Source of the DNA: an uncultured Bacillales bacterium | GTDB lineage: Bacteria; Bacillota_I; Bacilli_A; RFN20; CAG-826 | Direction of reading: 5' to 3' | DNA length: 64,000 bases | Assembly: GCA_946414655.1 (NCBI GenBank) | Contig: CAMKPL010000001.1 | Location: 47,081-111,080 of the forward strand | Shown here: piece after piece, positions 6,983-37,081 of the stretch | How positions within the stretch are numbered: the first letter of the stretch is position 1 | Layout: the number at the start of each line of letters is the position of its first letter | Position numbers and translations under genes: made by a program | Notes under the pieces: model-generated | The model's database searches: none | What the model saw: only the letters and a program-made list of their open reading frames with translations | Told to the model about the DNA's origin: nothing

Positions 6983-7014
6983 AAAATAAAAGCGAGTTCG
7001 GTGAGGAACTCGCT
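6983..7014 (-). terminator. Intrinsic terminator ending the catabolic operon
   Basis: GCGAGTTC-N6-GAACTCGC followed by TTTTA on the minus strand. Confidence 0.85.
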
Positions 7015-7036: not shown

Positions 7037-8047
7037 TTAACGGCGATCACTTGGGAGCTTATCGTGAACAAATAATGCCATAACAGCTTTAGCTGTGTGG
7101 ATTCTGTTCTCGGCTTCTTGATAAACCACTGATTGTGGTCCGTCGATAACCTCATCAACAACTTCGTTCACACGGTCGGCTGGAAGGGCGTGCATGTAAC
7201 GGCATGTTGGTTTGGCTAAAGCCATTTTTTCTGGTGTACACTTCCATGCTTTAAGAGCAAGTAATGCATCATCAACAACTGTGGTTGATTGGTTGGTGAC
7301 CCAAGAACCCCAGTTCTTTGGGAAGACGACATCAGCATCTTTATAAGCGGCATCCATGTCGTGAGTAATGGTTAATGAACCACCATTTTCAGCGGCATTT
7401 TTGCGGGCTTTTTCGATAACCCAGTCTGGTAAATCATAACCTTCTGGATATGCTAAGGTAACATCGATACCATAGCGTGGGAAAAGAAGAACTTGGCTAA
7501 CCGGAACTGAAATTGGTTTCTTGTGAGTTGTGGCCATCGCCCAAATAACAGAAACTTTTAAGTGCTTTGTTTTTCCGAATTCATCTTCAATGGTCATTAA
7601 GTCCGCAAGAGCTTGCATTGGGTGATATAAATCACATTGTAAGTTAATGATTGGGACTGTGGACCATTTGGCCATTTCGCGGATGTATTTGTTTCCTAAG
7701 CCCCAGTTACAATATCGGCAAGCGATCATGTGACCAAAGCTTGAAAGAATAACCGCGGTATCCTTGGCAGATTCACCATGAGCAATTTGCATCATGGATG
7801 TGTCAAGGAAGGTAGCGTGTCCGCCAAGTTGAGCCATACCACTTTCGAAAGAGTTACGGGTTCTTGTTGATTGTTCAAAGAACATCAAGAAACCTGTTTT
7901 TCCTTCTAACCATGGGGTCTTTTCGTTGGCGTAGAACGCATCTTTAAAGTCATGAGAGACTTTGAGCATGTAGTCGATTTCTTCTTTAGTAAAATCTTCT
8001 AAAGTAATGAGATGTCGACCGGCAAATCTTGGTGCTATTTTTTCCAT
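7037..8047 (-). CDS. Knotted-type (YgeW/AOTCase-like) carbamoyltransferase
   Basis: STRTR and HPMQALAD carbamoyl-phosphate motifs, MHALPADR, Pro-rich loop WAMATTHKKPISVP; context ygeY and carbamate kinase. Confidence 0.85.
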   Translation of the reverse strand: MEKIAPRFAGRHLITLEDFTKEEIDYMLKVSHDFKDAFYANEKTPWLEGKTGFLMFFEQSTRTRNSFESGMAQLGGHATFLDTSMMQIAHGESAKDTAVILSSFGHMIACRYCNWGLGNKYIREMAKWSTVPIINLQCDLYHPMQALADLMTIEDEFGKTKHLKVSVIWAMATTHKKPISVPVSQVLLFPRYGIDVTLAYPEGYDLPDWVIEKARKNAAENGGSLTITHDMDAAYKDADVVFPKNWGSWVTNQSTTVVDDALLALKAWKCTPEKMALAKPTCRYMHALPADRVNEVVDEVIDGPQSVVYQEAENRIHTAKAVMALFVHDKLPSDRR

Positions 8048-8059
8048 TTCTAAATCTCC

Positions 8060-9280
8060 TTATTTTTGTTTTGCGAGGTTTTCAAGGTAAAGACCTGGAA
8101 TTGTCGCATAGAGAGCAGCACACACGACTAAGTCGCGTTTTCTGGTCTTTTCATTTGGGGCGTGTGCTTCTTTTTCATCGCCTGGACCAAAGCCAATGCA
8201 AGGAATTCCGAAGCGTCCCATAATGGAAACACCATTGGTGGAGAATGTCCACTTATCAATCACTGGGGCTTTCTTGAAGAGTCCTTCATAACCTTGTTTT
8301 AAGGATTGAACATAAATGGAATCTTCTGGAATAACCCAGGTTGGGAAGTAGCATTCTTGTTTATAAACAAGACCAGTATAAGCTGGGCGTTCATAATCAT
8401 ACATTGAAACTTCTGCTTTCGCACGTTTCACACTTGGTAAATTTTCAATTTCCGCAATGGAAGTCTTATCGTTTTCTCCGACTGTTAAACGACGGTCGAG
8501 AGAAATCCAGCATCCATCAGCGACAGCACAACGGCTTGGAGACTTGTGGAAGATTTGGGAAATTGTGACTGTTCCTTTACCGAGGAATGGGTCATAGGCT
8601 AAACCAGTTTCATTGAGTTTTTCAATGTCTTTGATGATGTCAGCCATTTTATAAATGGCGTTATCACCACGTTCTGGTGCACTACCATGGCAAGAGATAC
8701 CACGAACGTTGACTTTGATTTCCATACGTCCACGGTGTCCACGATAGATTTGGCAGCTTGTTGGTTCAGTTGAAACAACAAATTCTGGTTTAATCTTGTC
8801 TTGCTCAATAATGTACTTCCAGCAAAGACCATCACAGTCTTCTTCTTGGACAGTACCGGTCACAAGTAAGGTAAAGTCATCTTCAAGACCGAGATCTTTA
8901 ATGATTTTACCGGCATAGACCATTGAGGCCATACCACCTTCTTGGTCACTTGTTCCACGACCACCGATATATGTTTCATCTTCGAAACCTTCATATGGAT
9001 CAAACTTCCAGTTTTTGATTTCTCCGATACCAACGGTATCGATGTGTGCATCCATGGCGATTAAGTGCTTACCATGGCCAATGTAACCTAAGACGTTACC
9101 CATTGGGTCGATGTCGACTTTGTCGAAACCAACTTTGAGCATTTCTTCTTTAATGCGAAGAACAACTTCTTTTTCGCCACATGACTCAGATGGAATCTTC
9201 ACCATGTCGCGAAGGAATTTAGTCATATCTTTTTGATATGATTCAGCTTTCTTAAGGATTTCTTCAAATGAAACTTTCAT
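8060..9280 (-). CDS. ygeY: YgeY family M20 metallo-amidohydrolase
   Basis: [50 protein letters not shown]. Confidence 0.92.
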
Positions 9281-10650
9281 TATTTAATTTCCTTTCCGCG
9301 CATTTCTTTAATCTTCTTATCATATTCGAAGACTTTGTTGTATTCTTTTTCCCAGAATTCTGGATGTCTCATCTCATCAAGATAAGATTGCTTGTAACCA
9401 AATTTAAGCCAATCGGATTCTTTTTGCTTAAAGAGTTTCTCTTTAGCTTCTTTACCACGTGTGTCTAAGACATAACGAGTATCGGCTCCGGCAAAGACAT
9501 CTTGATACCAACGTTCTAAGACGTGGTCAGTCACTTCGAGTTCACGTTCGTGTAAGTTTTGAATAACGGATGGATAGCGGTCAAATGAGTCTGTTGCGAT
9601 AGTTACAACATTATCATCTGGTCCGAGTTTGAGGTATTTGGCCATTTTGATGGCACCTAAAATGTTGCAAATACCAGAAACACCAAAGAGGTTTTCCATT
9701 TCTTTGGCAACTTTGGCTGGAACACCATGTTTTTCAAGGATCTTTGCGCCTTCATGAACGACGGCTAAACCACGGACACAATCATCATCGATGATTTGAG
9801 TAATAAAGTCGGTTGTTAAGGCGTTGTGAATAAGAGTAATCATCTTATCGCCAATACCCTCGATTCGGTGTTGTCCTAAACCACCATTGGTGAGTGTTGA
9901 ACATTCATGTGGTTCAAGAGCAACAATCTTACATTCTGGGAAGACTTGTTTAATTTGGTCACCAGCAGCTAATGTACCAGCAGAACCTGGTGCAGAGCAG
10001 AAGCAAGCAATACGACCATTACCAATACCTTTGACAGCTTCAATACAGGAATTACCTGTAACGTGTCTATGGAAACGATAGTTTGGTAAGAGTTCGAATT
10101 GAGCAAGAGTTCTGTTTTTTGGATTCTTCTTTAATTCGTAAGTTCTTTCGAGAGTAAGAATAACGTCTGATTCGGAACCTGGAGTTAAATCGAGTTTGGC
10201 TCCGTATTTTGAGATACGTTCATATCTTTCTTTCGACATGTTGTCTGGCATGATAACGATGGCGTCATACTTCATTAAGTTAGTAATGTAGCTAACACCG
10301 ATACCAAAGTTACCAGTTGATGGTCCAAGAATTGTGTGTTTTCCTGGAATAATTTCCCCATCCACACAACCTTCCATAAGTGTGGCATAAGCTGGACCCA
10401 CTTTGTGGGAGCCAGATGGGAAGTTCTTACCAAATAAGACGACAATGTTGGCGTCAACACCGGTTAAGCCTTTTGGTAAGACAATTTTGTTAACCTCATT
10501 CTTTTCGTTTTTCCAAGTGATGTTGAAGAGGTTAATTGGATCAAGTTCGTTTTCTTTGATCGCTTTGAGGGCTTTCGCTCTCACTTCTGGGTCTTGGTGT
10601 GATGGATTGAGCATCTCATCATACGTTGGCCCAAATGGGATTTTTGACAT
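9280..10650 (-). CDS. Fold-II PLP enzyme, extended cysteine-synthase-like (456 aa), substrate unknown
   Basis: SGSHKVG (Schiff-base Lys), PSTGNFG, APGSAGT, HRIEGIG; long N- and C-terminal extensions. Confidence 0.8.
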
Positions 10651-10651
10651 A

Positions 10652-11896
10652 CTAAATAGCTCCTTTTTCTTTCAAAAATTTATCCAATTCTTCAAGGTTT
10701 GGTTTCATCGGTTCAGGCATGGATACCGCCTTTTGACCGTTGACTGGATCTTTTAGACCATTGCCAGTCACAATGGTTGTTACGGTTTCACCTGGTTTAA
10801 TAATACCTTGTTCCACCGCTTTCTTTATACCGGCTATTGCGGCCACGCCAGCTGGTTCTCCGAAGATACCTTCGGTTCTTCCAAGTAGCGACATGGCTTT
10901 AATAATATCACTATCAGGTACAGAAATCCAAGCACCATGCGATAAACTTATCGCATTTTGTGCTTTTACAGGGTTTCTTGGGATACCGACAGCGATAGAG
11001 TCGGCAAGGGTGTTTTCATCGGCTTCCTTAAGTGGTTCTCCTGTTTCAGAAGCAATCACAAATGGGGCACAGCCAGTTGATTGAACACCAAGGATTTTCG
11101 GGACTTTTTTAATCAAACCTAACTTAAAAAACTCGGCAAATCCCTTATAAACGCCACCAACTGTACATCCGTCACCAACAGATATCGCAACCCAATCAGT
11201 CGGTTCAAAGTTGAGTTGTTCAGCAATCTCCATCGAGACTGTTTTCTTTCCTTCGACCATGAATGGGTTGATGGCAGCATTACGATTGTACCAACCGTAT
11301 TTATCGATCGCTTGTTTAGAAAGTTGGAAAGCGGCTTTGTAGTCGCCATCAACCTTAACTAAAGTAGCGCCGTATAAACAAATTTGAGTGGCTTTGCCAA
11401 TCGGAGCACGTTTCGGAACAAAGATTACTGCTTTGAGTCCAATATGTGCGGCTTGGCAAGCACAGCTAGAGGCAGCATTACCGGTTGAAGAACAGGCAAT
11501 TGTTTTTGCGCCTGCTTCTACAGCTTTTAAAACAGCTACTCCACTAGCTCTATCTTTAGATGAACCACTTGGATTCAATCCGTCGTCTTTGACGTAGAGT
11601 TCTTTTACGCCAAGTTCTTTTTCAAGACGACGAGCTCGATAAAGTGGGGTCCATCCAACACGTAACATTTCATCAATGTGGTCTTCTTGAATGCCCATAA
11701 TTGGAGCATAACGCCACATTGAGTAGTTGCGATTATTTTCAAAATATTCGCGTGTTAAAACTTTCTTTAATGCATCGTAGTCATAAACGACATCGAGAAT
11801 GCCTTTTTCTCCGCAATGTGGACAAGTTAAGCCAACTTCGCCTTCCTTAAATTCGGCTCCACAAAGAGTGCATTTATAACCTTTAATGTAACTCAT
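10652..11896 (-). CDS. Threonine synthase-like fold-II PLP enzyme with N-terminal zinc ribbon
   Basis: CTLC..CPHC, LNPSGSSKDR, SSTGNAA, VGDG, TLADSI, EPAG, TGNGLKD. Confidence 0.85.
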   Translation of the reverse strand: MSYIKGYKCTLCGAEFKEGEVGLTCPHCGEKGILDVVYDYDALKKVLTREYFENNRNYSMWRYAPIMGIQEDHIDEMLRVGWTPLYRARRLEKELGVKELYVKDDGLNPSGSSKDRASGVAVLKAVEAGAKTIACSSTGNAASSCACQAAHIGLKAVIFVPKRAPIGKATQICLYGATLVKVDGDYKAAFQLSKQAIDKYGWYNRNAAINPFMVEGKKTVSMEIAEQLNFEPTDWVAISVGDGCTVGGVYKGFAEFFKLGLIKKVPKILGVQSTGCAPFVIASETGEPLKEADENTLADSIAVGIPRNPVKAQNAISLSHGAWISVPDSDIIKAMSLLGRTEGIFGEPAGVAAIAGIKKAVEQGIIKPGETVTTIVTGNGLKDPVNGQKAVSMPEPMKPNLEELDKFLKEKGAI

Positions 11897-12750
11897 TATT
11901 TCCTACCTCCAACAATGTCATCAATGAACTTATTAAAGATGTTCATCGAGACTGTTTGACGATATTCTTTATTACTTCTTTGGTCATCGATTGGAGCAAT
12001 AATTTGTGCAAAATCACCAGCAATTTGCGGTTGTTTTGCTTTTAATTCTTCTAATGAAAGACCAACAACTTTTGCTTCAAGTTCTTTGCTTCTTGCCGGA
12101 CGAACTGAGACCGAACCAAAGCAACAAGCAAACTTAGTAACAACGTTCTTCTTCACTTCGTAATAACCAGCAAAGGAGAGTTTAGAAATTGAATCAGCTC
12201 GACGTGAGCCAACCTTAAACCAAAGTTCGCCAGTGTATTCAATTTTTGGGAAAATAAGTTCAGTAATTAATTCATTTGGATGACGATCGACTTTACGAAC
12301 GCCAAGAACAAAATCTTTGGCATCAACTAAACGAACTCCATCAACTGATTCAAGTTTCACTTTTGCATCAAGAAGAGCGTCGATAACAATTGTGTCTCCG
12401 GCTGGAGAAGCATTCGCGATATTCCCAACAAGTGTGCAGAAATGTCGAATATTCGTTGATGCAACTTCACAAATCGCTTTTCTTAATAAAGAAGGACAAA
12501 GCTTATGGTGCTCAATTTCATGCATTGTTGCTGTAGCACCAATGTGAACGCCTTCTTTATCTTCGTAGATGTTTGCTAGTTCCTTAATATGTGAAACATA
12601 TAAAACATCTTTATCAAATAAAGGAGCATAACCAGCAACATTCTTTTTGATAACCATCATGTCGCTTCCACCGGCAACAATGTAAGCATCATGGTTAGCT
12701 AAAAAGTCGAGAGCTTCTTTTTTGGTATAAGCAATTTTCTTTTCTACCAT
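11896..12750 (-). CDS. Xanthine dehydrogenase-family FAD-binding subunit
   Basis: AGGSD, IRHFCTLVGNIANASPAGD, PIDDQRS. Confidence 0.9.
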   Translation of the reverse strand: MVEKKIAYTKKEALDFLANHDAYIVAGGSDMMVIKKNVAGYAPLFDKDVLYVSHIKELANIYEDKEGVHIGATATMHEIEHHKLCPSLLRKAICEVASTNIRHFCTLVGNIANASPAGDTIVIDALLDAKVKLESVDGVRLVDAKDFVLGVRKVDRHPNELITELIFPKIEYTGELWFKVGSRRADSISKLSFAGYYEVKKNVVTKFACCFGSVSVRPARSKELEAKVVGLSLEELKAKQPQIAGDFAQIIAPIDDQRSNKEYRQTVSMNIFNKFIDDIVGGRK

Positions 12751-13217
12751 AATCCAGCTCCTTTCTTACTGGCAATTACTACCGCTTGAACAATAGCTTG
12801 ATAACCAGTGCAGCGGCATAAATTACCACTCATATGTGCTTTAATTTCTTCCTCAGTTGGATGAGGATTATGAGAAAGTAGAGATTGAGCAGCAATAATC
12901 ATTCCTGGAGAGCAGAATCCACATTGGGATCCTCCGACTTCAGCAAATGCTTTTTGTAAAACATCAAATTGTTTGGTTTCTTTGAAACCTTCAATAGTCA
13001 CAATCTCGTGGCCTTCTACGTTAGCTAATGGAAGCAAACAGCTATTCACTGAATATCCATCCATTAAAACAACGCAGGCTCCACAAGATCCTTCGCCACA
13101 ACCTTCTTTTACTCCTTTTAATGAGAAATGATCACGAAGGACATCAATTAAACGCATGCTTGGGTCTAAATCAACAGCAACATCTTTGCCATTTAATCGA
13201 AACTTAATGCTTGTCAT
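12744..13217 (-). CDS. Xanthine dehydrogenase-family 2x[2Fe-2S] subunit
   Basis: GCGEGSCGAC, QCGFC, GNLCRCTGY. Confidence 0.93.
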   Translation of the reverse strand: MTSIKFRLNGKDVAVDLDPSMRLIDVLRDHFSLKGVKEGCGEGSCGACVVLMDGYSVNSCLLPLANVEGHEIVTIEGFKETKQFDVLQKAFAEVGGSQCGFCSPGMIIAAQSLLSHNPHPTEEEIKAHMSGNLCRCTGYQAIVQAVVIASKKGAGLW

Positions 13218-15303
13218 GATTAATCACCTCCATGATGTATTCTGGTGTAGCAGGAATCTTATTCACTTTGTGACCAATTGCTTGTTCAATGGCAAGCGCA
13301 ATCGCTGGAGCTCCACCAACGAGAGTTAATTCACCCATTCCTTTAGCGCCGTTAGCACCATAAATAAATGGGTTATCAATAAATGCTGTCTCCATAGGAG
13401 GAGCATCTTCAAATGTCGGAATAATGTAGTCAGATAATGAACGATTACGGAATTTACCATCTTTAATTCCCATGTGTTCAAGATAACCATAGCCTAAACC
13501 TTGGAGTAATCCTCCATCAGCCTGGCCAACGGCAATACGTTCATCAACAACTCGACCAACATCATAAGTTGACCAACAATGATCAACTTTAATTTGGTAA
13601 GTTACTGGATCAAATGAGACTTCAACAACGTTGACACCCCAAGAATAGGATGGATAAGCGTCACCTTGCATTGTATCTTCATCCCAATGGATATAACTTG
13701 GTCCGACATAACTTTCAACATGTTCTTGTCGAACTCCACTCTTCCAGATTTTCTTTAATTGTTTAGCAGCTTTTTCCATTAGGAAACCAACAATAATAAT
13801 TGTTCTAGAAGCCGCTGTTGGTCCGGAGTCAGGAGTGTGATCAGTATCAGCCGCCTCCATTGTGCATTGTTCAGCTGGTAAACCAAGTGTATTAGACACG
13901 ATACGTGCTAAAGTTGTACGGTTTCCTTGACCAAAGTCAGCACTTGAAGCATAAACATGGATATGATCATTCTCATCTTTGATGAGCTTGACTTTACCAT
14001 TAATAATTGTTGATTCACCAGAACCAGTAAATCCACATCCGTGAAGGAATAAGGACATACCAATTCCTTTGTTAGAGCCTGGTTGGGCGTATTCAACTAC
14101 TTTGCGTTTGTAGTCGGACATTTCCATGGCTTTGTCTACTAACTGAGGAAGAATAATTGGGTCATGGAATTCACCAGAATTTGTTGTGATATCTCCTTGT
14201 TTTGCAAGGTATTTCATTCTTAACTGTAATGGATCAACTCCAAGTTCTTTAGCAACGTGATGGATAAACATTTCCATTGCAAAGATTGTTTGTGGAGCAC
14301 CAAATCCACGGAACGCGGCAGTCGGAACGGTGTTTGTACAATAAACATCTCCAGCCACATCTAGGTATTCAAATACGTATGCATTGCATGAAGCGATGAG
14401 CGCACGTGATAAGACAACACCAGAGCAGCCTTTATAAGCACCACCATTAAGTTTGACACGAATCCTTAAACCAAGAATTTCGTTATTCTTGCCGATAAAT
14501 GCTTCGTATGTTGAAACTGATGGGTGACGTTTTGTTGTATAAGCAATATCTTCAAAACGTTCATAACACATCTTCACTGGACGATGAATTTTATTAACCG
14601 CCACGGCAAGTTGTGAACCCATTAAACTTGGATAGTGTTCTTTGCCACCAAATGCTCCGCCAACAGCAGGTTGTTTAACACGAACTTTTTCTGGAGCAAT
14701 ACCAAGAGCTCGAGCAACAGCCTTTCTAATATAGAATGGACATTGCATTGAACCAGTTAAATAGAACTTATCATCTTCATCGATATAACAAAGAATACCT
14801 TGAGGTTCGATGTAGGCTTGTTCTTGATAACCGGTCTCATAAGTTTCTTTAATTGTTTTAACAGCATTTTTCTCAGCCTTCGAAAAATCACCTTTTGTAA
14901 ATTCTTTATGAATATATGAATTCACAAGATCGTAAACTGGTTTTTCTTCTTCATAAATAACCGAGATTTGCTGGCATAATTTGTGTAAAACCTCTTTATT
15001 TTCTCCAACAAATAAACCAATTGCTTCACCGACATAATTAACTTCTTTATCAGCAAAAATTGGCCAATCGGAGAAGATAATATTAACAACATTTTCACCA
15101 GGAATATCTTTTGCTGAAATCCAATAATAACCTTCTGGAAGTTCAGGCAGTTTGATTTCCTTTATCTTTCCTTTAGCAATTGTTGATCGCACGGTTTGAG
15201 CATAAAGCATTCCTGGTAACACAAAGTCATCAGTAAACTTTGCTTCTCCGCGGATCTTTTCAGGGAAGTCAATTTTTGGTGTACTTGACTTATATAGTTC
15301 CAT
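13204..15303 (-). CDS. Xanthine dehydrogenase-family molybdopterin subunit (XdhA-like, 699 aa)
   Basis: GGAFGGKE, AFRGFG, PTAASR, GAKGMGE. Confidence 0.92.
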   Translation of the reverse strand: MELYKSSTPKIDFPEKIRGEAKFTDDFVLPGMLYAQTVRSTIAKGKIKEIKLPELPEGYYWISAKDIPGENVVNIIFSDWPIFADKEVNYVGEAIGLFVGENKEVLHKLCQQISVIYEEEKPVYDLVNSYIHKEFTKGDFSKAEKNAVKTIKETYETGYQEQAYIEPQGILCYIDEDDKFYLTGSMQCPFYIRKAVARALGIAPEKVRVKQPAVGGAFGGKEHYPSLMGSQLAVAVNKIHRPVKMCYERFEDIAYTTKRHPSVSTYEAFIGKNNEILGLRIRVKLNGGAYKGCSGVVLSRALIASCNAYVFEYLDVAGDVYCTNTVPTAAFRGFGAPQTIFAMEMFIHHVAKELGVDPLQLRMKYLAKQGDITTNSGEFHDPIILPQLVDKAMEMSDYKRKVVEYAQPGSNKGIGMSLFLHGCGFTGSGESTIINGKVKLIKDENDHIHVYASSADFGQGNRTTLARIVSNTLGLPAEQCTMEAADTDHTPDSGPTAASRTIIIVGFLMEKAAKQLKKIWKSGVRQEHVESYVGPSYIHWDEDTMQGDAYPSYSWGVNVVEVSFDPVTYQIKVDHCWSTYDVGRVVDERIAVGQADGGLLQGLGYGYLEHMGIKDGKFRNRSLSDYIIPTFEDAPPMETAFIDNPFIYGANGAKGMGELTLVGGAPAIALAIEQAIGHKVNKIPATPEYIMEVINHDKH

Positions 15304-16400: not shown

Positions 16401-16402
16401 CG

Positions 16403-17692
16403 TTATTCCTCCTTCACTTTGGACCATAAATTACTCGCGAATTTGCGAGCTTCAATAACTTCATTAATGAGCTTTTTGCTGGTAATTTTGTAATCTTTGA
16501 CACGTTTTGTACCAGCAGTATAAACATCGCTTGGTTTTAAAGCTGGGAATAATCCGTAGAAGAGATGACCTAGTGCATTTGAAGCATCCATTTTTGTAAA
16601 TGGAGTGTACTTCACGCGCATAAAGTCAGCTTCATAACCTTTCTCAAATTTTCCAAGTTTTAAGCCTAAGCGATCTCCGACATATTTATAAGAGTTTTCA
16701 ATCATTTGATGAACATCTCCAAGGCCAATACCTAAAGGAGATTCGCTCTTCAAATGACCAGTATAAAGAACATTGTTATATTCGTTAGCCATATTAGAAC
16801 TTAAGCCGTCGTTTCCAACCATAACTGGAATTCCATAATCTAAATATTTACGGACATTTGGAAGACCAACAGCATTGTTCATATTGGATGTTGTATTAAC
16901 AACCATGTAGCAGCCTCTTTCCTTAATAATTTGAAGTTCTTCATCATTAAGATGAACACCATGAACAATTAAGGAGTTTGGAACAAGTAATCCAAAATCA
17001 TCAAAGCGTTTAATGATTGGCTTTTTGTATTTTTCTTCTGAATCTGATTCATCATCTAGTGCCTCAGCAACGTGAACGTGTAAAGGAACTCCGTTTTGTG
17101 CTTTTGCAACTCTTCTAAGTGTTGCGTTTGATAGTGACATTGAAGCGTGCAATCCAAATAAACCTTCACCAGGATAACGTTTAGCAAAATTTTTGTTTTC
17201 TTTAATACAATCGCTAACATTATAACGATCGCTTGTTTCAAAGCAGAAGATTCCATGCATTTTGAGTGGTCCGACAAAAGCTTTTCTTAAAGACTTCAAA
17301 GAGCCAATAATTTCTCCTGATGCATGGTGGTCAATAACTGATGTTACACCGTTTAAAAGGAATTCTTCACCGGCACAAATTGCGGAATAGTAAGTTTCTT
17401 GATTAACAAGTTTTGCATCAATCTTCCACCACATTTGATCCAAGATTTGCTGGAAATTTTTTGGATTAAACGGTAAAGCAAGACCTCTAGCAAAAATCGA
17501 ATAAATGTGAGCGTGGGCACACACAAATGTAGGAAGAAGTAGGTCGCCTTTATAATCTTCGACTGATTGGTATTCGCCTTTTGGGAATTCGCTCATTGGG
17601 CCACATTTCACGATTTTGTCATCAAAAAGTAGATAACCGCATTCGATGTAGTTTTTGTAGTCATAAATTCGAGCATTAATAATTGCTTTCAT
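16403..17692 (-). CDS. SsnA-like metal-dependent amidohydrolase
   Basis: CAHAHIYS, DHHAS, GLHAS, HVHVAE, VHGVH, GNDG. Confidence 0.85.
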   Translation of the reverse strand: MKAIINARIYDYKNYIECGYLLFDDKIVKCGPMSEFPKGEYQSVEDYKGDLLLPTFVCAHAHIYSIFARGLALPFNPKNFQQILDQMWWKIDAKLVNQETYYSAICAGEEFLLNGVTSVIDHHASGEIIGSLKSLRKAFVGPLKMHGIFCFETSDRYNVSDCIKENKNFAKRYPGEGLFGLHASMSLSNATLRRVAKAQNGVPLHVHVAEALDDESDSEEKYKKPIIKRFDDFGLLVPNSLIVHGVHLNDEELQIIKERGCYMVVNTTSNMNNAVGLPNVRKYLDYGIPVMVGNDGLSSNMANEYNNVLYTGHLKSESPLGIGLGDVHQMIENSYKYVGDRLGLKLGKFEKGYEADFMRVKYTPFTKMDASNALGHLFYGLFPALKPSDVYTAGTKRVKDYKITSKKLINEVIEARKFASNLWSKVKEE

Positions 17693-18999
17693 TATTTAAC
17701 CTCCCCACAATTTAAGTTCTTTCCCTGATGTGGAACAATTTTTCGATTTTTTAACACAAATTGTCCACGAACAAGCACTGTTTCAAATTCACCAGAACCA
17801 AGAATTCCATCATAAATGGAGTAATCACAAGTACCGTGGTTTTCATTTTCAAAATAGTCTTCTTTTTCTAAAAACACCGACAAATCTGCATCCATTCCAA
17901 CTTTGATTTCTCCCTTGGTTGGGAAATCTTGAATTTTTGCAGAATTAAATGACATTTTGTCGATGATTTCATCACCAAATCGTCGATACATTGTTGAGAA
18001 TGAATGCTCAATTCCTCCAACACCGAGAGGGAATCCTTTTAGAGTTGGATAATCTTTGTCTTTCTTCATAAATGAACAATGGTCGGTGCCAATTGTTTCA
18101 ACATCTTTATAGTAGGCGATTAAAAGTTGTCGTTCTCTTTCACTTCTTAGTGGAGGTGCAAACGTAAATAGTTTTCCATTCTCACCTTCTAAAACAGAGT
18201 TATTAAAGATGAAATATTGTGGACAACTCTCAACAAATAAATTCTTATTAAGAATGTCTGGGAATTGTTCTTTAAGTGCTTTTAATGTTTCACCACTTGA
18301 GCAATGAACCATATAGAAGTTTCCGCCAGTTTCACGAACAAGTTTAGCAAGTTTTAGTGCCTCACTTGTTTCACTCATTGATGGGCGAGAAACTGGTAAA
18401 TCTTTATAAGTATAAGAATCGCGAAGATCGATTAAATCATCGTTTTCAATGTGCGCTTCGATAAGAACGTTGTACTTCTTAGAAAGTTGTAATAATTTTT
18501 CGATATCTTTCTCATAAGTACGTCGACCAGTGTCACTATAAGTTGTAAACAACTTAATTGTTCTCATTCCAAGTTTAACAACGGTTTTGACGTATTCTTC
18601 TAAATCGCCATTTGGCATCTTAATGCAAGCGTGCATGTGATAGTCAACAAGTGACTTCTTCGCGAGTTCAAGACGTTCATAAAACGACTTCTCTAAATCT
18701 TTGGCATTACTAGTTGGATCAAGGAAATCAACAATGGTTGTTACACCGCCATAAGCGGCACAAACTGAACCACTATAAAAGTCATCCACCGAAGTTAATC
18801 GCCCACAGTTCAGTTCAAAATGAACATGTGGATCAATTAATCCAGGAAGAACTTTCTTTCCTTTTGCGTCAAGAACTTCTTTAGCTTCGACTTCTTCTGT
18901 TCCAACGTAAGAAATTTTCTCACCTAAAACAGCCACATTGACGTTTTGCCATTTGTGGTCAATCCAAACTAATCCGTTCTTTATTAATAAGTCGTGCAT
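17692..18999 (-). CDS. Dihydropyrimidinase/hydantoinase (HyuA-like) cyclic amidohydrolase
   Basis: PGLIDPHVHF, AAYGGVTT, IKLF, HIEN, VHCS, GTDHCSF. Confidence 0.85.
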   Translation of the reverse strand: MHDLLIKNGLVWIDHKWQNVNVAVLGEKISYVGTEEVEAKEVLDAKGKKVLPGLIDPHVHFELNCGRLTSVDDFYSGSVCAAYGGVTTIVDFLDPTSNAKDLEKSFYERLELAKKSLVDYHMHACIKMPNGDLEEYVKTVVKLGMRTIKLFTTYSDTGRRTYEKDIEKLLQLSKKYNVLIEAHIENDDLIDLRDSYTYKDLPVSRPSMSETSEALKLAKLVRETGGNFYMVHCSSGETLKALKEQFPDILNKNLFVESCPQYFIFNNSVLEGENGKLFTFAPPLRSERERQLLIAYYKDVETIGTDHCSFMKKDKDYPTLKGFPLGVGGIEHSFSTMYRRFGDEIIDKMSFNSAKIQDFPTKGEIKVGMDADLSVFLEKEDYFENENHGTCDYSIYDGILGSGEFETVLVRGQFVLKNRKIVPHQGKNLNCGEVK

Positions 19000-21314
19000 T
19001 ATTTCTTTTCTTTGACCGCCTTAAAGATTCTTTCAGGAGTAATTGGTAAGTGATGGATTCTTACGCCAAAGGCGTTATAGACAGCGTTACATAAAACAGC
19101 TGGTGGAGTATCAATACCAATTTCACCAACAGATTTCGCACCAAATGGTCCTGTTGGTTCATATGAATCAGCAAATTCGGTGACTAATTCACCAACTTCA
19201 GCGCGGGTTGGAATGTGATAGACATCGAAGTTTGTTGTTAATAGTTTTCCTTTGTCGTTATAAATGACTTCTTCAGAAGAGGCCATTCCATAACCTTGGA
19301 TAATTCCACCTTCAACTTGGCCTTTAGCCAGCATTGGGTTAATTGTTGTACCACAGTCAGTTACTGTGACGTACTTAATCATCTTGTATTCGAATGTTTC
19401 AGTATCGAATTCGAATTCACCAAACGCAGCCATAAATGGAGGTGGAGAAACATGTCCATGGAAGGATTCGGTAACAGCGATTTGGCGGGTGTCTTGGTTA
19501 TATAAACGATTGGTTGCTAAATCTTCTAAGGAGAGAGATTTTTCACCAGATGTAAACATCTTTCCGTCAAATTCAACAGTGCCGACTTTCACATTCATGT
19601 ATTCAGCAGCTTCTTTAACAAGTCTTTCTCTCATCTTAGATGCAGCGTTCCATGCGGCATTACCACTAACATAAGTTGTGGAGGATGCATAAGCACCACA
19701 GTCATATGGAGTTAAATCTGTATCAGAAGAATAGATAATGACTTTATCAACAGTGGTTTGAAGTTCTTCAGCAACGATTTGAGCAATCATTGTGTCGGAA
19801 CCTTGGCCAATATCGGTCGCACCAACAGTGACCATGTAAGAACCACCATCATTGAGTTTAATTGTACAAGAACCCATGTCTAAGAATGGAATGCCAGAAC
19901 CTTGCATAGCAATAGCGCAGCCAACTGAACGAACTTTATGTGGTCCGACTTCTTTTCTTGGCCATTTCTTATCCCATTCAATGAGTTCACGACCACGTTT
20001 AATACAATATGGAAGCTTGCAGCTTTCCATAATCATCGCAGTACCTTCTGTACCTTCACCCATAATTTCAAAGATTGGGGAAGTTTCTTTTTCCTTCATT
20101 GAGTTCAGCTCACGAAGTTTAATTGGATCCATACCCATCTTTTCTGCAAGTTCATCTATGATGGATTCAACAGCATAGTTTCCTTGAATAGCACCGTATC
20201 CACGATACGCACCAGCAGAAACGTGGTTGGTATAAACAACGTGGCCACCAAATTTCACAGCCTTAACTTTGTTATATAAAGGAAGAACCTTTGAACCAAC
20301 AATCATAAAGACTGTTAAGGCGTGTTCACCGTAAGCACCAGTATCACTTAAAGCACGGCAATCAATGGCTTGAATAATACCATCCTTTGTTGCGCCGACT
20401 TTGAGAGTAATTTTCATTGGGTGACGTGTGTATGAACATCCAAATACTTCTTCACGAGTGAAGACACACTTACTTGGTTTCTTTGTTCGTAATGTAACTA
20501 AAGCGCAGAACATTTCACCATGGAAAGCTTGTTTACCACCAAATCCACCACCGACACGTGGTTTAACAACACGAATCTTTTCTACAGGAAGACCCAATGT
20601 CTTTGACATAATTCTTCTCATGTGGAATGGGGTTTGGGTTGTTGAATAAACAACTAAACGGTTATGTTCATCTAAGCGAGCATTACATGAGTGCGGTTCA
20701 AGCATCGCGTGAGCTTGGGCTTGAGAATAGAAAGTGTCTTCAACAACATAGTCACATTTCTTTAATTCTTCAGCGACATTACCAACTTCCATCTCATAGG
20801 AGGCAGCTAAATTCTTCTTTGGATCAAAGCCAATTGGGAACATTTCATGAATGCCATCTTCTGGGTGGATGACAGATTTATTTTCATAAGCTTTTTCAAA
20901 GTCGAGAACTGGTTCAAGAACTTCATAATCGACTTTGATTTTCTTCATTGCTTCTAAAGCAACTTCTTCGCTAACTGCAGCAACAGCAGCGACTTCGTCT
21001 CCTACATAACGAGCGTATTCATCAAAGATGAACTTATCATGTGGAGACGGTTCTGGATAACCTTGTCCAGCACGTGTAAAGGCAACATGTGGAACGTTAT
21101 CTTTGGTGAGAATACAAGCGACACCAGGAACTTTTTCCGCTTCACTAACATCGATTGATTTAATACGAGCAAAAGCGTGAGGACTTCTTAGTAGCTTAAT
21201 TACTAAGGAGTTTTGTTGAGCAAGATCATCAGTGTAGAAAGAACGACCTTGCATTAAGCCTTTACCATCAAGACTTGGAGTAATGTTATTAACAACACGG
21301 AAATTCTTTTTCAT
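18999..21314 (-). CDS. XdhD-like molybdopterin-binding subunit (771 aa)
   Basis: GGGFGGKQ, AYRGYG, GATDIGQG, GAYASS, GAKSVGE. Confidence 0.9.
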   Translation of the reverse strand: MKKNFRVVNNITPSLDGKGLMQGRSFYTDDLAQQNSLVIKLLRSPHAFARIKSIDVSEAEKVPGVACILTKDNVPHVAFTRAGQGYPEPSPHDKFIFDEYARYVGDEVAAVAAVSEEVALEAMKKIKVDYEVLEPVLDFEKAYENKSVIHPEDGIHEMFPIGFDPKKNLAASYEMEVGNVAEELKKCDYVVEDTFYSQAQAHAMLEPHSCNARLDEHNRLVVYSTTQTPFHMRRIMSKTLGLPVEKIRVVKPRVGGGFGGKQAFHGEMFCALVTLRTKKPSKCVFTREEVFGCSYTRHPMKITLKVGATKDGIIQAIDCRALSDTGAYGEHALTVFMIVGSKVLPLYNKVKAVKFGGHVVYTNHVSAGAYRGYGAIQGNYAVESIIDELAEKMGMDPIKLRELNSMKEKETSPIFEIMGEGTEGTAMIMESCKLPYCIKRGRELIEWDKKWPRKEVGPHKVRSVGCAIAMQGSGIPFLDMGSCTIKLNDGGSYMVTVGATDIGQGSDTMIAQIVAEELQTTVDKVIIYSSDTDLTPYDCGAYASSTTYVSGNAAWNAASKMRERLVKEAAEYMNVKVGTVEFDGKMFTSGEKSLSLEDLATNRLYNQDTRQIAVTESFHGHVSPPPFMAAFGEFEFDTETFEYKMIKYVTVTDCGTTINPMLAKGQVEGGIIQGYGMASSEEVIYNDKGKLLTTNFDVYHIPTRAEVGELVTEFADSYEPTGPFGAKSVGEIGIDTPPAVLCNAVYNAFGVRIHHLPITPERIFKAVKEKK

Positions 21315-21766
21315 TATTTCTTACCTCCAAGATATTTTTCGACAGCGTTACCTTGGCTTTGTAAACCAGTACAACGACATAAGTTTCCAACTAAGTAATC
21401 ATTGATTTCTTGACGAGTTGGATGTGGGTTTTCTTCTTTTAAGGCGTGAACAACTAGGGCGAGAGCTGCTGAGCAATATCCACATTGGTCGGCGCCTTCT
21501 TTAGCAAAATATTCGGAAAGTTGAGCAGCTTCTTCTTGGATGGATTCAACAGTCATAACTTTCTTTCCTTCAATTGAAGCTGTTAGAACAGAACAAGATA
21601 GAGTTAGTTTTCCATCAACGAGAACTGTACAAGCTCCGCAAGCGGAGGCGTTACAACCTTTCTTAACTGATTTGACTCCGTTAGCGCGAAGTGAATCAAG
21701 AAGGTATTCACCTGGTTTAACATAGTAGACAACATCTAAACCATTTAAATTGAATTTGACTTCCAT
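21314..21766 (-). CDS. 2x[2Fe-2S] subunit of the second molybdo-hydroxylase
   Basis: GCNASACGAC, QCGYC, GNLCRCTG. Confidence 0.92.
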   Translation of the reverse strand: MEVKFNLNGLDVVYYVKPGEYLLDSLRANGVKSVKKGCNASACGACTVLVDGKLTLSCSVLTASIEGKKVMTVESIQEEAAQLSEYFAKEGADQCGYCSAALALVVHALKEENPHPTRQEINDYLVGNLCRCTGLQSQGNAVEKYLGGKK

Positions 21767-22543
21767 TTATTTAACCTCCTCTAAAGCGCGTTTTAAGTAA
21801 ACACGAGCAAGATGGCTTCGGTATTCACCTTTGGCGCTCATTGAGTCGCCAAGTTTTAACTCTTGCATAGCAAGCTCAACGGCTTGATCAACATCCTTGC
21901 CACCTTCATTTAAATATTTCATCGCTCCTTCGCATAAACATGCAACTAATGGACGAGAACCAACCACAATTCGGTAATCTTTGTCTTTAGTGACACAGAC
22001 ATTCAGAATTGGGTAATCTAGAGCAGTCATTTTAACTTTCTTAAAGAAAGATTTGGCAGAACTCTTATAAATACGAACTTCAGTTAAAATTCCATCAGCA
22101 AATCCTGGTTTCTTCACGTATTCATCAAGTGATATGACTTCTTCTGGATAGAAAACTAAATCAACTTTAAATCCAAGAAGAGCAGTAATCACATCAGAGA
22201 AACCATATTTTCCGTAAACGGAACCTCCGATTGTGGCGCTATTGCGGAAAGCTGGACCCATGATTTGATGAACCGCATCAGAGAGAACTCCGCCACCAAT
22301 CTTTTTAATAATTGGAGAGGTTTCAAAAGCTCTTTGAGTAACCAACGCGCCAACTGAAACATAATCTTTTTCTTCTTTAATTTGGTCTAAACCTAGACGA
22401 GAAAGATCGATTAATTTGTCGACGTCGCCATTTCCTTTCTTTAACCATAAACCACCACCAAGAATTTTATTTTTTGGTGATGATTTTTTGAGGGAGTATG
22501 CTTCTTCCAAAGAAGCTGCACGAACATATTCGTTTACTTTCAT
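21767..22543 (-). CDS. YgfM-like FAD-binding subunit
   Basis: ILGGGLWL, FRNSATIGGSV, SAKGEYR. Confidence 0.85.
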   Translation of the reverse strand: MKVNEYVRAASLEEAYSLKKSSPKNKILGGGLWLKKGNGDVDKLIDLSRLGLDQIKEEKDYVSVGALVTQRAFETSPIIKKIGGGVLSDAVHQIMGPAFRNSATIGGSVYGKYGFSDVITALLGFKVDLVFYPEEVISLDEYVKKPGFADGILTEVRIYKSSAKSFFKKVKMTALDYPILNVCVTKDKDYRIVVGSRPLVACLCEGAMKYLNEGGKDVDQAVELAMQELKLGDSMSAKGEYRSHLARVYLKRALEEVK

Positions 22544-23115
22544 GTTTGCTTCCTTTCTAACAAAGTAAGAAGTTTTTCGTAGTCTTCCATCGTATCAACA
22601 TCAAAATTGATAAATGGATCATTAACCTCTACCTCAACAACTTTGTCTTTGTTTTGATCTAAAAAAGCATGTAAATTCGATTCCACTGGTTCCTTCTTTA
22701 ATGAAGAAAGTAAATGATTTTCAATAAAAAGAGGGTGGCCGGTTTTGCCTTGATAGGTTGGAATACGAACAGTGCCTTTAGAATGTAAGATTGTTTCATA
22801 GGTCTTGCTAGAAACGTTTGGAATATCTCCTGGAATTAAAAGAATGTCTTCATCGTGCGCTCTACTAACTCCAGTTAGCACAGAAGAAAACATTCCTAAT
22901 TCGTAATTCTTGTTGTAGGCAAATTCAACATCATATTGATGAAGAATTTCTCTAAGCTCAGCGTCATAGCGACCAGTCACAACAACAATGTGGTCTACAA
23001 AAGGTCGCATTGTTTTAAATGTATGACAAATTAATGGTTCGCCTTTAAACTCTAAAACCATCTTATTGAGTTTTACCCGGCTGGAATAACCGCCTGCGAG
23101 AACAATTCCTAGCAT
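22540..23115 (-). CDS. mocA: Molybdenum cofactor cytidylyltransferase (MocA/YgfJ-like)
   Basis: VLAGGYSSR..NKM, GMFSS, PGDIP, GHP, DVDT.EDY; first gene of the operon. Confidence 0.8.
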   Translation of the reverse strand: MLGIVLAGGYSSRVKLNKMVLEFKGEPLICHTFKTMRPFVDHIVVVTGRYDAELREILHQYDVEFAYNKNYELGMFSSVLTGVSRAHDEDILLIPGDIPNVSSKTYETILHSKGTVRIPTYQGKTGHPLFIENHLLSSLKKEPVESNLHAFLDQNKDKVVEVEVNDPFINFDVDTMEDYEKLLTLLERKQT

Positions 23116-23141
23116 ACAATCTTTCCCAAAATATAATAAAT

Positions 23142-23170
23142 ATTTTACACGAGCAAGCGCTCGCTATCAA
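23142..23170 (-). promoter_or_regulatory. Promoter of the catabolic operon with a palindrome in the spacer
   Basis: TTGATA-17 nt-TAAAAT on the minus strand; CGAGC-AAGC-GCTCG at 23150-23163. Confidence 0.65.
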
Positions 23171-23262
23171 GCAAGCTCATAAAAAGAAAATTAAATAATG
23201 CAAATATGTGCGTGTTTTGCTGTAGATTTTGTATAATATTGAAGTACGAAAGAGGTAGAAAA

Positions 23263-24180
23263 ATGTCACGTTATGTTGTCTCATTAGGAGGCAATGCACT
23301 AGGCAACAACGCCGAAGAGCAGAAGGCTCTTCTAAAGGGTGTTGCAAAAAGCATTGTCCACTTGATTAAACTTGGAAATGAAGTTGTGATTGTCCATGGA
23401 AACGGACCACAAGTAGGCATGATTAATCTTGCTTTTACTGAATCAACTTCAGCTCCAGATATGCCATTCCCAGAATGTGGAGCAATGAGCCAAGGTTATA
23501 TTGGCTTCCATATTCAAAACGCCATTCAAAACGCACTTAAAGACGAAGGTATTCAAAGAAACGTTGCCACTGTTGTCACGCAAGTGCTCGTTGATAAGGA
23601 TGATCCACTTTTCAAATCTCCATCAAAACCAGTTGGAGCATTCTATAGTGAAGAAGAAGCAAAGAAAATTGCTGCCGAAAAAGGCTATACGATGAAAGAA
23701 GATGCTGGTCGAGGTTGGAGAAGAGTTGTTGCTTCACCACTTCCAGTTGATGTTGTTGAAAAAGAATCTATTTCCCGTCTTGTTAAAGCAGGTGATGTTG
23801 TCATCTGTGCTGGCGGAGGTGGAATTCCAGTAATTAAAAATGGGGATCACTTAGAAGGTATCGCCGCAGTTATCGACAAAGACTATGCATCCGCAAAAGT
23901 TGCTGCTCTTGTTGATGCTGACTATCTTGTTATTTTAACGGCTGTTGATAATGTCTATATTAACTTCCGCAAGCCAGATGAAAGGAAACTTGAACGTGTT
24001 TCTAAAGCGGAAATGGAAGAATATTTAAAAACCGATTACTTTGCTAAAGGAAGTATGTATCCAAAGGTCAATGCCTGTGTAAAATTCTTAAACGAAAAAC
24101 CAGGCAAAACCGCAATTATTTCATCCTTAGAAAAAGCAAATTTAGCTGTTGAATTAAAAGCTGGAACAATTATTAAATAA
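23263..24180 (+). CDS. arcC: Carbamate kinase (YqeA/ArcC-like)
   Basis: SLGGNAL, HGNGPQVG, AMSQGYIG, RRVVASP, GGGGIPV, IDKD, GSMYPKV; start 23263 (AGAGG RBS). Confidence 0.95.
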   Translation: MSRYVVSLGGNALGNNAEEQKALLKGVAKSIVHLIKLGNEVVIVHGNGPQVGMINLAFTESTSAPDMPFPECGAMSQGYIGFHIQNAIQNALKDEGIQRNVATVVTQVLVDKDDPLFKSPSKPVGAFYSEEEAKKIAAEKGYTMKEDAGRGWRRVVASPLPVDVVEKESISRLVKAGDVVICAGGGGIPVIKNGDHLEGIAAVIDKDYASAKVAALVDADYLVILTAVDNVYINFRKPDERKLERVSKAEMEEYLKTDYFAKGSMYPKVNACVKFLNEKPGKTAIISSLEKANLAVELKAGTIIK

Positions 24181-26470: not shown

Positions 26471-26487
26471 TTAAGACTCCTTTTCTG

Positions 26488-32467: not shown

Positions 32468-32591
32468 ATGAAAATACAGGCAATTCCTGATTGTTTGTTT
32501 AAAAATGACGATAATTTATTCTTAAAAACCATATAAGGATAAATACGACGGTTATTTCTTTTAAAGAAATGTTGTGATATATTCTATAACT

Positions 32592-35522: not shown

Positions 35523-35523
35523 T

Positions 35524-37078: not shown

Positions 37079-37081
37079 TCT

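Follow-up and report, generated by a model that had tools for sequence, protein, structure and literature searches.

The anaerobic 2,8-dioxopurine (reductive urate) pathway was reconstituted in 2025 from the gene clusters of Escherichia coli and Clostridium sporogenes (Liu et al., 2025, bioRxiv 10.1101/2025.04.24.650524; Li et al., 2025, PMC12507026). XdhD (DOPDH) reduces urate to 2,8-dioxopurine ("yanthine"), YgfK dearomatises this product, SsnA then opens the pyrimidine ring, HyuA opens the hydantoin ring to give 2,3-diureidopropionate, YgeW frees carbamoyl phosphate that YqeA turns into ATP, and YgeY yields 2,3-diaminopropionate (DAP), which YgeX (DpaL) converts to pyruvate and ammonia (both papers). 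Enzymes of E. coli, C. sporogenes, and C. difficile have been used to assay the steps up to DAP, and xanthine dehydrogenase (XDH) feeds hypoxanthine and xanthine into urate (2025 pathway literature). In C. difficile, the place of YgfK is taken by UacX, a PydA-like, FAD-less protein that is active with SsnA on yanthine, and further reductase variants have been noted (Li et al., PMC12507026). Here, we compare with these systems an operon of 14 genes and a divergent carbamate kinase gene at positions 7037–24180 of a 64-kb stretch of DNA from an uncultured Bacillales bacterium (contig CAMKPL010000001.1, positions 47,081 to 111,080; the whole stretch is called the window). The operon very probably encodes the 2,8-dioxopurine pathway, and at its end a pair of pyridoxal phosphate (PLP) enzymes, one ThrC-like and one CysK-like, probably takes over from YgeX.

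The original prediction for this locus described the E. coli genes as merely implicated in purine degradation, a wording that the 2025 reconstitution has made outdated. It also proposed a new pathway variant, and the two parts of that proposal now stand apart: the substitution of YgfK has already been published as UacX (PMC12507026), whereas displacement of YgeX by a ThrC-like and a long CysK-like enzyme is apparently undescribed, being mentioned neither in the 2025 pathway papers nor in the 2022 preprints. With the pathway itself also published, what apparently remains new is the terminal module. In the neighbourhood analysis of Li et al., any PF00291 protein was counted as "YgeX" (PMC12507026), a proxy that lumps YgeX with the ThrC-like and CysK-like proteins, so that a replacement of this kind would be hidden.

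The purine operon and described urate clusters

All 15 open reading frames (ORFs) of the original prediction were found at the same coordinates. Fourteen lie on the minus strand, from 23115 down to 7037, and are joined by overlaps of 1–25 nt or gaps of 0–12 nt; these ORFs and junctions, together with the best-scoring promoter and terminator sites (below), agree with the earlier picture of 14 tightly coupled genes running from one promoter to one terminator, with a divergent carbamate kinase gene. Families were assigned from NCBIfam and Pfam profile scores against curated cut-offs, and the proteins of the E. coli K-12 cluster served as references that were compared with the window by tblastn. 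The features are the following:

23206–24180, plus strand: carbamate kinase (YqeA/ArcC), predicted to make ATP from carbamoyl phosphate; TIGR00746 386.2 bits (cut-off 358.25), 53% identical to E. coli YqeA
22540–23115, minus strand: MocA-like molybdenum-cofactor cytidylyltransferase; TIGR03310 123.6 bits (cut-off 186.45), DVU_1551 NTP-transferase family 148.4 bits
21767–22543, minus strand: FAD subunit of molybdenum (Mo) enzyme 1, YgfM/XdhB-like; 26% identical to YgfM
21314–21766, minus strand: 2x[2Fe-2S] subunit of Mo enzyme 1 (NCBIfam/Pfam, E. coli comparison); in E. coli fused to the XdhD N terminus
18999–21314, minus strand: XdhD-type molybdopterin subunit (Mo1), predicted 2,8-dioxopurine dehydrogenase (urate to 2,8-dioxopurine)
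17692–18999, minus strand: HyuA-like cyclic amidohydrolase, predicted to open the hydantoin to 2,3-diureidopropionate
16403–17692, minus strand: SsnA-like amidohydrolase, predicted to cleave the pyrimidine ring of reduced 2,8-dioxopurine
15303–16427, minus strand: UacX-type reductase; DHO_dh (FMN; PF01180) and two [4Fe-4S] motifs, without an FAD/NAD domain
13204–15303, minus strand: second molybdopterin subunit (Mo2), XDH/PucD-type, without the XdhD insertions; predicted hypoxanthine/xanthine to urate
12744–13217, minus strand: 2Fe-2S subunit of XDH, PucE/XdhC-like (NCBIfam/Pfam)
11896–12750, minus strand: FAD subunit of XDH, XdhB-like (NCBIfam/Pfam)
10652–11896, minus strand: fold-type-II PLP enzyme, ThrC-like, with a CxxC...CxxC zinc ribbon at its N terminus; candidate YgeX replacement acting on DAP
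9280–10650, minus strand: long CysK/beta-substituted-alanine-synthase-like PLP enzyme, 456 aa, with N- and C-terminal extensions
8060–9280, minus strand: YgeY M20 hydrolase; TIGR03526 692.7 bits (cut-off 321.5), 72% identical to E. coli YgeY
7037–8047, minus strand: short YgeW-related carbamoyltransferase, 336 aa, predicted to phosphorolyse a ureido group to carbamoyl phosphate

Set against the published pathway, XDH (Mo2 with its 2Fe-2S and FAD subunits) would convert hypoxanthine and xanthine to urate; the XdhD-type enzyme (Mo1 with the first FAD and 2Fe-2S subunits) would take off the 6-oxo group of urate; the ferredoxin-type UacX reductase and SsnA would dearomatise the resulting 2,8-dioxopurine and then open its pyrimidine ring; HyuA would open the hydantoin; the short carbamoyltransferase would supply carbamoyl phosphate and carbamate kinase ATP; and YgeY would take off the second ureido group, giving DAP. 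The family scores and the E. coli comparison bear out the earlier suggestion of an operon for purine-type catabolism that follows the ygeW-ygeY-hyuA-ssnA-xdhD logic and has a carbamate kinase, and the 72% identity of YgeY to its E. coli counterpart implies that both enzymes act on the same ureido-amino-acid substrate. Oxidation of hypoxanthine to urate would give four reducing equivalents, exactly the demand of the two reductive steps, a balance that offers a rationale for both Mo enzymes sharing one operon. The MocA-like protein (28% identical to E. coli MocA) is predicted to mature the cofactor of both.

With the E. coli/C. sporogenes cluster (xdhD-ygfM, ygfK, ssnA, hyuA, ygeW, yqeA, ygeY, ygeX), the window operon has in common an XdhD-type Mo enzyme with a YgfM-like FAD subunit, a YgeW-type carbamoyltransferase with carbamate kinase, YgeY, and a MocA gene, along with candidates for SsnA and HyuA, and the order of chemical steps to DAP is presumably the same. 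It differs in having a UacX-type protein for YgfK, the ThrC-like and long CysK-like enzymes for YgeX, the 2Fe-2S domain of XdhD as a separate subunit, and a complete second XDH in the same operon. The C. difficile cluster (Li et al., 2025) likewise has a PydA-like, FAD-less DHO_dh/Fe-S reductase, probably ferredoxin-dependent, beside SsnA in place of YgfK, but it lacks YgeW and carbamate kinase (having the hydrolytic UacY), keeps YgeX, and has an XdhD without a YgfM subunit, whereas the window operon combines predicted phosphorolysis and carbamate kinase with a YgfM-like FAD subunit and no YgeX. Judged by gene content, the operon mixes features of the E. coli and C. difficile types and adds a new end.

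Among the upper-pathway proteins, Mo1 is closer to E. coli XdhD (36.5% identity, 493 bits) than to XdhA (370 bits), and in the alignment it has both XdhD-specific insertions, including GEG at the position of Glu606, neither of which is found in XdhA or Mo2. XdhD Glu606 was singled out by Li et al. for orienting urate (PMC12507026). The SsnA-like protein scores 325 and 300 bits with the SsnA models (cut-offs 444 and 455) and 114 with the next family, and is 30% identical to E. coli SsnA; the HyuA-like protein scores 227 bits with the D-hydantoinase model (cut-off 393), is 27% identical to E. coli HyuA, and has its gene in the same position in ~45 loci. By tblastn, no homologues of yqeB or yqeC (selenium-cofactor maturation) were found in the 64-kb window, a search that did not extend to selD. 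A YqeB-like gene lies upstream of hyuA in related clusters (L055–L057), from Izemoplasmatales and a "Staphylococcaceae"-labelled metagenome-assembled genome (MAG).

With the E. coli K-12 proteins, tblastn found no YgeX homologue and no full-length YgfK homologue in the 64-kb window, in agreement with the earlier observation that both are absent from the cluster. The UacX-type protein, whose gene overlaps the ssnA-like gene by 25 nt, is predicted to be a ferredoxin-dependent 2,8-dioxopurine reductase in place of YgfK; its architecture fits the one published for C. difficile UacX (Q181U4). It had been labelled PreA-like, an identity that we reject: it scores 118.1 bits with the PreA model (cut-off 335), has no PreT neighbour, and shares only 27% identity with a genuine PreA that the window also encodes.

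That bona fide PreA (415 aa; NF006183 624 bits, cut-off 335) lies directly downstream of a PreT/GltD-like gene, the two spanning 57231–59712 on the minus strand. The PreT/GltD-like protein (410 aa; 58480–59712; Fer4_20 and Pyr_redox_2) is the sole YgfK/YgfT-like match in the window; we considered it as a detached YgfK half and rejected this as the main reading on account of the adjoining PreA. By its families the pair looks like a separate NAD-dependent dihydropyrimidine dehydrogenase, which suggests that the organism probably has reductive pyrimidine catabolism too. At 32574–38353 on the plus strand there is an Rnf-type ferredoxin:NAD+ oxidoreductase set (RnfC, RnfD, an Rnf-Nqr membrane subunit, then ApbE), which could plausibly supply the FAD-less UacX-type reductase with reduced ferredoxin.

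In the lower module, the carbamoyltransferase had been described as knotted. The protein is 36% identical to YgeW, 60 residues shorter, and has in common with it the motifs QIAHGE, NLQCDxxHP, PKxW, and YMHxLPAD, which mark it as a predicted YgeW relative. On profile scores, ornithine carbamoyltransferase models come out higher (260 bits) than the YgeW models TIGR03316 (180.9 bits; cut-off 500) and NF005538 (191.4 bits; cut-off 453), both of whose cut-offs are missed. An arginine-deiminase-type pair of ornithine carbamoyltransferase and carbamate kinase was rejected: the ornithine-site DxxxSMG motif is absent, the YgeW motifs are there, and no arcA is present. The carbamoyltransferase is also the most conserved protein of the cluster, with 93–100% identity across Bacilli MAGs (L003–L033) in which HyuA and SsnA are at 53–80%, and it is still 65–69% identical in Desulfosporosinus, Halanaerobium, and Aminiphilus (L119, L148, L159), accompanied there by YgeY (68–70%). 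This conservation suggests either strong constraint or that the lower module has moved by lateral transfer.

Two PLP enzymes at the position of YgeX

The likeness of the ThrC-like protein to threonine synthase and cysteate synthase lies in the fold-type-II PLP architecture, ~40% identity to solved bacterial threonine synthases, and the retained PLP lysine motif. It passes the cut-off of TIGR00260 (211.2 bits; cut-off 167.1), which is why databases name it threonine synthase, and fails that of PRK08197 (273.7 bits; cut-off 303). Where threonine synthases have STGNT.AS and NSVNPxRxEGQKT, it has STGNAASS and NAAINPFMVEGKKT. STGNAASS and N-A-[AG]-[IV]-N-P-x-[M/L/C]-x-E-G-K-K-T recur in the query and in 76 of 76 subfamily members, whereas all five solved threonine synthases (four bacterial, one plant) have STGNT.AS (STGDT in the plant enzyme) and N-S-x-N-[PS]-x-R-x-E-G-Q-K-T; Thr, Ser, and Arg of these enzymes thus give way to Ala, Ala, and Met/Leu throughout the ThrC-like subfamily. 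We take the replaced residues, which are invariant in the five solved enzymes, to be those that bind the substrate phosphate in the T. thermophilus threonine synthase structures; a full-text search on the residue names gave nothing relevant.

The ThrC-like protein also departs from threonine synthase in its N-terminal zinc ribbon (CxxC...CxxC in 62 of the 76 subfamily members) and in its genomic context, which consists of purine genes, Bmp/PnrA transporters, and serC/serA and not of hom/thrB; neither hom nor thrB was found in the window or in the small number of related loci that had Pfam annotation. On these sequence features it is not a normal threonine synthase. The superfamily with the zinc ribbon is large and heterogeneous (1473 clusters at E<1e-30 in an exhaustive representative search), and the same search indicated no characterised member. 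Threonine synthase itself finishes its reaction by addition of water at C-beta, and cysteate synthase, an offshoot of threonine synthase, carries out beta-replacement on O-phosphoserine.

The CysK-like protein has in common with the CysK family, including Fn1055 and SbnA, the fold, the PLP lysine (HKVG), the PSTGN loop, and the GSAGT phosphate loop; the family is known for beta-replacement chemistry. Unlike that family, it carries ~150 extra residues (N-terminal ~60, C-terminal helical ~90; CysK and CysM are usually about 300–320 aa), has invariant motifs of its own, and occurs in a urate-cluster and serC/serA context. It reaches 133.3 bits with the cysK model (cut-off 350.95), and public records call it "pyridoxal-phosphate dependent enzyme" or "cysteine synthase." Foldseek with the AlphaFold model (pLDDT 74.9, low in the active-site loops) returned only the generic CysK/beta-substituted-alanine-synthase fold (probability 1.0) and no match for the extensions. 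The best PDB profile match of the family is Fn1055, a cysteine (hydroxyl) lyase that converts cysteine to serine with water as the replacing group; SbnA, another relative, catalyses an O-phosphoserine-dependent step in diaminopropionate biosynthesis. Beta-replacement or beta-elimination on DAP is predicted for the CysK-like enzyme.

When E. coli YgeX is compared with the window by tblastn, the best match proves to be the ThrC-like gene (25% identity over 176 residues, E 7e-6), which scores only 59.8 bits with the DpaL model NF006058 (cut-off 276) and does not qualify as DpaL. In E. coli, deletion of ygeX leads to accumulation of DAP on urate. To follow the distribution of these enzymes, four scans of species-representative genomes were seeded with the ThrC-like protein, the CysK-like protein, carbamate kinase, and YgeY, and the loci were annotated with blastp, for which the proteins of the window and of E. 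coli served as references. At least 160 species genomes have ThrC-like relatives and at least 592 have CysK-like ones; both families are large, conserved, and unannotated. Among loci of at least 10 kb, 55 of 74 ThrC-seeded and 37 of 58 CysK-seeded ones carry urate-pathway genes. The synteny check on the gene set found the order of the window kept in ~45 Bacilli MAG species, with proteins down to 43–78% identity, and also in Izemoplasmatales. Urate clusters with the PLP pair occur in Oscillospiraceae (cultured Vescimonas sanitatis), Desulfosporosinus, Halanaerobium (H. kushneri), Aminiphilus, Anaerolineae, Terriglobia, and others, and the lineages of the seeded loci with urate-pathway genes also include Thermotogae, Bipolaricaulota, and Synergistota.

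The YgeY-seeded sample (Lachnospiraceae, Veillonella, Clostridium, Enterococcus, and others) gives the complementary picture: in 48 of 54 loci of at least 15 kb, YgeX is the sole one of the three PLP enzymes, and the remainder comprise one locus with CysK-like and YgeX genes, one with CysK-like and ThrC-like genes, and four with none. Where present in this sample, YgeX adjoins ygeY-ygeW-yqeA, usually in the order YgeX>YgeY>YgeW>YqeA. Among the ThrC- and CysK-seeded loci with YgeY or the carbamoyltransferase nearby, 69 have the ThrC-like gene without YgeX, two have CysK-like and YgeX genes without a ThrC-like gene (L117, L141), and one has all three (L077). ThrC-like and YgeX are thus near-exclusive alternatives at one position, directly 5' of ygeY, and the CysK-like gene partners either of them or occasionally stands as the sole PLP gene (L142, L144, L151).

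Other ThrC-like loci adjoin Bmp/PnrA-type nucleoside ABC transporters. Two of the loci, from uncultured Eubacteriales/Bacillota MAGs (L062, L064), are "lower pathway only" operons: four tandem Bmp/PnrA-type binding proteins (identified in L062) are followed by a YgeY-like protein, the short carbamoyltransferase, an amidohydrolase, the ThrC-like enzyme, a hydantoinase, and carbamate kinase, with no gene for a Mo enzyme, reductase, CysK-like protein, or YgeX. Such an operon may serve uptake of a partly degraded ureide, not of a purine. In V. sanitatis MH37-1 (L074), a gene at 7140–7961 for a YheO-like PAS and HTH regulator lies between divergent ygeY-ygeW-yqeA and CysK-like-ThrC-like-amidohydrolase genes, making its product a candidate regulator of the module in Oscillospiraceae.

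Serine genes beside the pair and the competing explanations

On either side of the purine operon and carbamate kinase gene lie genes of serine metabolism:

24252–29051, minus strand: GDH-DUF1015/SerBK-SerC-SerA operon, upstream of the purine operon and convergent with the carbamate kinase gene
27705–29051, minus strand: GDH (NCBIfam/Pfam, as for the next three)
26488–27711, minus strand: DUF1015/SerBK
25388–26470, minus strand: SerC
24252–25388, minus strand: SerA
5743–6954, minus strand: Fe-S L-serine ammonia-lyase (SdaA type); TIGR00720 356.9 bits (cut-off 345.1)

The order GDH-DUF1015-SerC-SerA beside carbamate kinase recurs in 15 of the 19 loci with the closest carbamate kinase relatives (72–98% identical). 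The sdaA gene is a separate transcription unit directly downstream of the terminator, and an SdaA gene lies downstream of the carbamoyltransferase gene in 16 related loci; the protein is a possible serine-to-pyruvate step, judging by its family. The association of the PLP genes with serine genes is found in Clostridia as well and has recurred independently, for example as YgeW>CysK-like>ThrC-like>SerC with gaps of 24/3/24 nt (L053), ThrC-like>SerC>SerA>YgeY (L311), CysK-like>SerC>SerA-like>DUF1015>YgeX (L099), CysK-like>SerC>SerA...SdaA>M20 (L095), CysK-like>ThrC-like...SerC>SerA (L115), and SerC>SerA>carbamate kinase (L235); in six further loci the ThrC-like gene adjoins SerA/SerC. No SerC was found in the ~50 YgeX-type loci of the YgeY-seeded sample.

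DUF1015 complements serB and has been argued to be a serine kinase, "SerBK," in a 2026 preprint (GapMind; bioRxiv 10.1101/2024.10.14.618325), which proposes it for both serine synthesis and serine use, the latter via SerC and reverse SerA to 3-phosphoglycerate, and which reports no link to purine catabolism. The window operon has the same three genes as that SerBK-SerC-SerA module and, unlike it, includes GDH and is syntenic with a purine-degradation operon. With GDH in the serA/serC/DUF1015 operon, the transamination and redox steps are self-balancing in either direction.

Taken together, the PLP pair would seem to link purine breakdown to serine metabolism. In the scheme that we put forward, the pair would carry out beta-replacement on DAP to give L-serine (or O-phosphoserine) and ammonia, and the product would leave either through the adjacent SdaA to pyruvate or through SerBK(DUF1015)-SerC-SerA to 3-phosphoglycerate, with GDH recycling 2-oxoglutarate. 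We advance serine or O-phosphoserine as the product only tentatively, at slightly below even chances. If the serine route holds, purine catabolism is joined to the newly proposed SerBK module, and the predicted end products are 3-phosphoglycerate or serine, not pyruvate.

In a more specific version, one of the PLP enzymes would convert DAP and phosphate to O-phospho-L-serine and ammonia by phosphorolytic beta-replacement, in analogy to, and as the reverse of, the chemistry of O-phosphoserine-dependent CysK and ThrC relatives. SerC and SerA would then run in reverse with GDH recycling 2-oxoglutarate, taking the C3 unit of the purine to 3-phosphoglycerate, so that a second phosphate bond per purine would be conserved besides that of carbamoyl phosphate and pyruvate would be bypassed. 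The operons of L053 and L311 have no serine kinase gene on the short contigs recovered, as this version predicts; we nonetheless regard it as distinctly unlikely.

Several points weigh against the explanation as a whole, from the 2,8-dioxopurine pathway to a serine-forming pair in place of YgeX. A ygeX gene could lie elsewhere in the genome. Two loci carry YgeX together with both PLP genes (L077, L123), so the pair is not a strict alternative to YgeX; the CysK-like gene also occurs beside YgeX without a ThrC-like gene (L117, L141) and the ThrC-like gene without a CysK-like gene (L051, L062), so the two enzymes need not act together. In the ThrC-like protein, an Arg two residues before the equivalent of threonine synthase Asn154 (NRNA motif) makes an anion or phosphate site possible, perhaps relocated, which weakens the claim that the anion site has been lost. 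Ordinary serine biosynthesis supplied with ammonia from purines would account equally well for GDH-SerBK-SerC-SerA, so the serine module may run in either direction. The substrates and products of both PLP enzymes are deduced from context only. Finally, SsnA, HyuA, and the carbamoyltransferase show only 27–36% identity to their E. coli counterparts and miss the curated cut-offs.

The simpler alternative, and a strong rival even though we think it somewhat unlikely, is that the ThrC-like protein is a non-orthologous DAP ammonia-lyase (DAP to pyruvate and two NH3), the CysK-like protein being an accessory (for a second stereoisomer, detoxification, or cysteine formation) and the nearby serine genes ordinary biosynthesis. 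The near-exclusive occurrence of ThrC-like and YgeX at the same place beside ygeY fits this well, and so does the finding of the ThrC-like protein as sole PLP enzyme in the lower-pathway operons (L062/L064) and beside SsnA-YgfK-XdhA (L051/L052). Threonine synthase deprived of its phosphate yields a 2-oxo acid instead of adding water, and loss of the phosphate-site residues would favour elimination. An ammonia-lyase leaves unexplained, however, why SerC/SerA/DUF1015/SdaA lie in operons with the pair or beside it in several unrelated lineages and are absent from the ~50 YgeX-type loci, and it gives no account of the equally conserved CysK-like partner, which is itself the sole PLP enzyme in three loci (above).

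That the PLP genes are biosynthetic passengers, a threonine synthase and an O-phosphoserine or O-acetylserine sulfhydrylase with no role in purine breakdown, would suit the TIGR00260 score (211 vs. 167 bits) and public name of the ThrC-like protein, the designation of the CysK-like protein as cysteine synthase by one source, and the SerA/SerC association, which an O-phosphoserine-using cysteine synthase would explain. Set against this are the replacement of residues invariant in threonine synthases throughout the ThrC-like subfamily, the absence of hom/thrB and cysE nearby (in the window and a few fully annotated related loci), the low cysK score (133 bits, cut-off 351), the translational coupling of both genes within a catabolic operon, and the presence of both in well over 100 urate clusters of many lineages at the YgeX position; we consider passengers improbable. 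Action of the same enzyme logic on a different heterocycle (a purine isomer, modified base, or pterin), which the original prediction had left as an option and to which the low identities and below-cut-off scores of SsnA, HyuA, and the carbamoyltransferase and the two distinct Mo hydroxylases could point, is highly improbable given that Mo1 carries the insertions specific to XdhD together with the Glu606 position, YgeY shares 72% identity with its E. coli counterpart, an XDH-type second Mo enzyme is expected for the feed from hypoxanthine and xanthine to urate, and the gene set maps one-to-one onto the published pathway with a candidate for every step but YgeX and no extra ring-modifying enzyme.

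Marker surveys, operon signals, and setting of the window

Urate- and purine-consuming gut and rumen bacteria affect host urate, and surveys of carriers use marker genes. One published criterion asks for all five markers, including ygeX, and another for at least four of seven proteins above identity cut-offs set against C. sporogenes. Because the present cluster type has neither ygeX nor ygfK and several of its proteins are only 27–36% identical to those of E. coli, it would probably be scored negative by these criteria, an approximate estimate in that the comparison was with E. coli, not C. sporogenes. Many uncultured Bacilli of the rumen and gut have the variant, as do Oscillospiraceae of the human gut such as Vescimonas, Faecousia, and Dysosmobacter, so purine-degrading capacity may be under-counted. 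Cultured carriers exist, among them V. sanitatis MH37-1 (L074), H. kushneri ATCC 700103 (L148), and Desulfosporosinus nitroreducens P130 (L123), so the role of the PLP pair is directly testable.

The transcription signals of the operon were identified by consensus scans:

23142–23170, minus strand: sigma-70-like promoter, TTGATA-17-TAAAAT, 10/12 consensus matches
6991–7014, minus strand: intrinsic terminator, 9-bp stem with 5 G-C pairs, then TTTTATTTT

The promoter-like site (23170–23142) is one of two tied best scores in the region, and among terminator-like sites that of the operon is the strongest. The promoter spacer, from the -35 to the -10 hexamer, contains an inverted repeat, CGAGC gctt GCTCG (23150–23163; 5 bp per arm). 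This possible operator falls within the 90-nt region that the operon and the divergent carbamate kinase gene have in common. Rfam gave no riboswitch or other RNA element near the purine operon, the sole hits in the window being four tRNAs, whose genes lie in tandem at 41380–41852 on the minus strand.

Proteins of the window are 98–99% identical to those of the MAG "Bacillales bacterium UBA4278" (contig DGVS01000003), which belongs to a large set of Bacilli MAGs from rumen and gut, often labelled Erysipelotrichaceae. At 53363–57055 on the minus strand, the window also encodes a subtilase (Peptidase_S8) of 1230 aa with Big_2 and Big_3 Ig-like domains, by its domains probably a surface or secreted protease.

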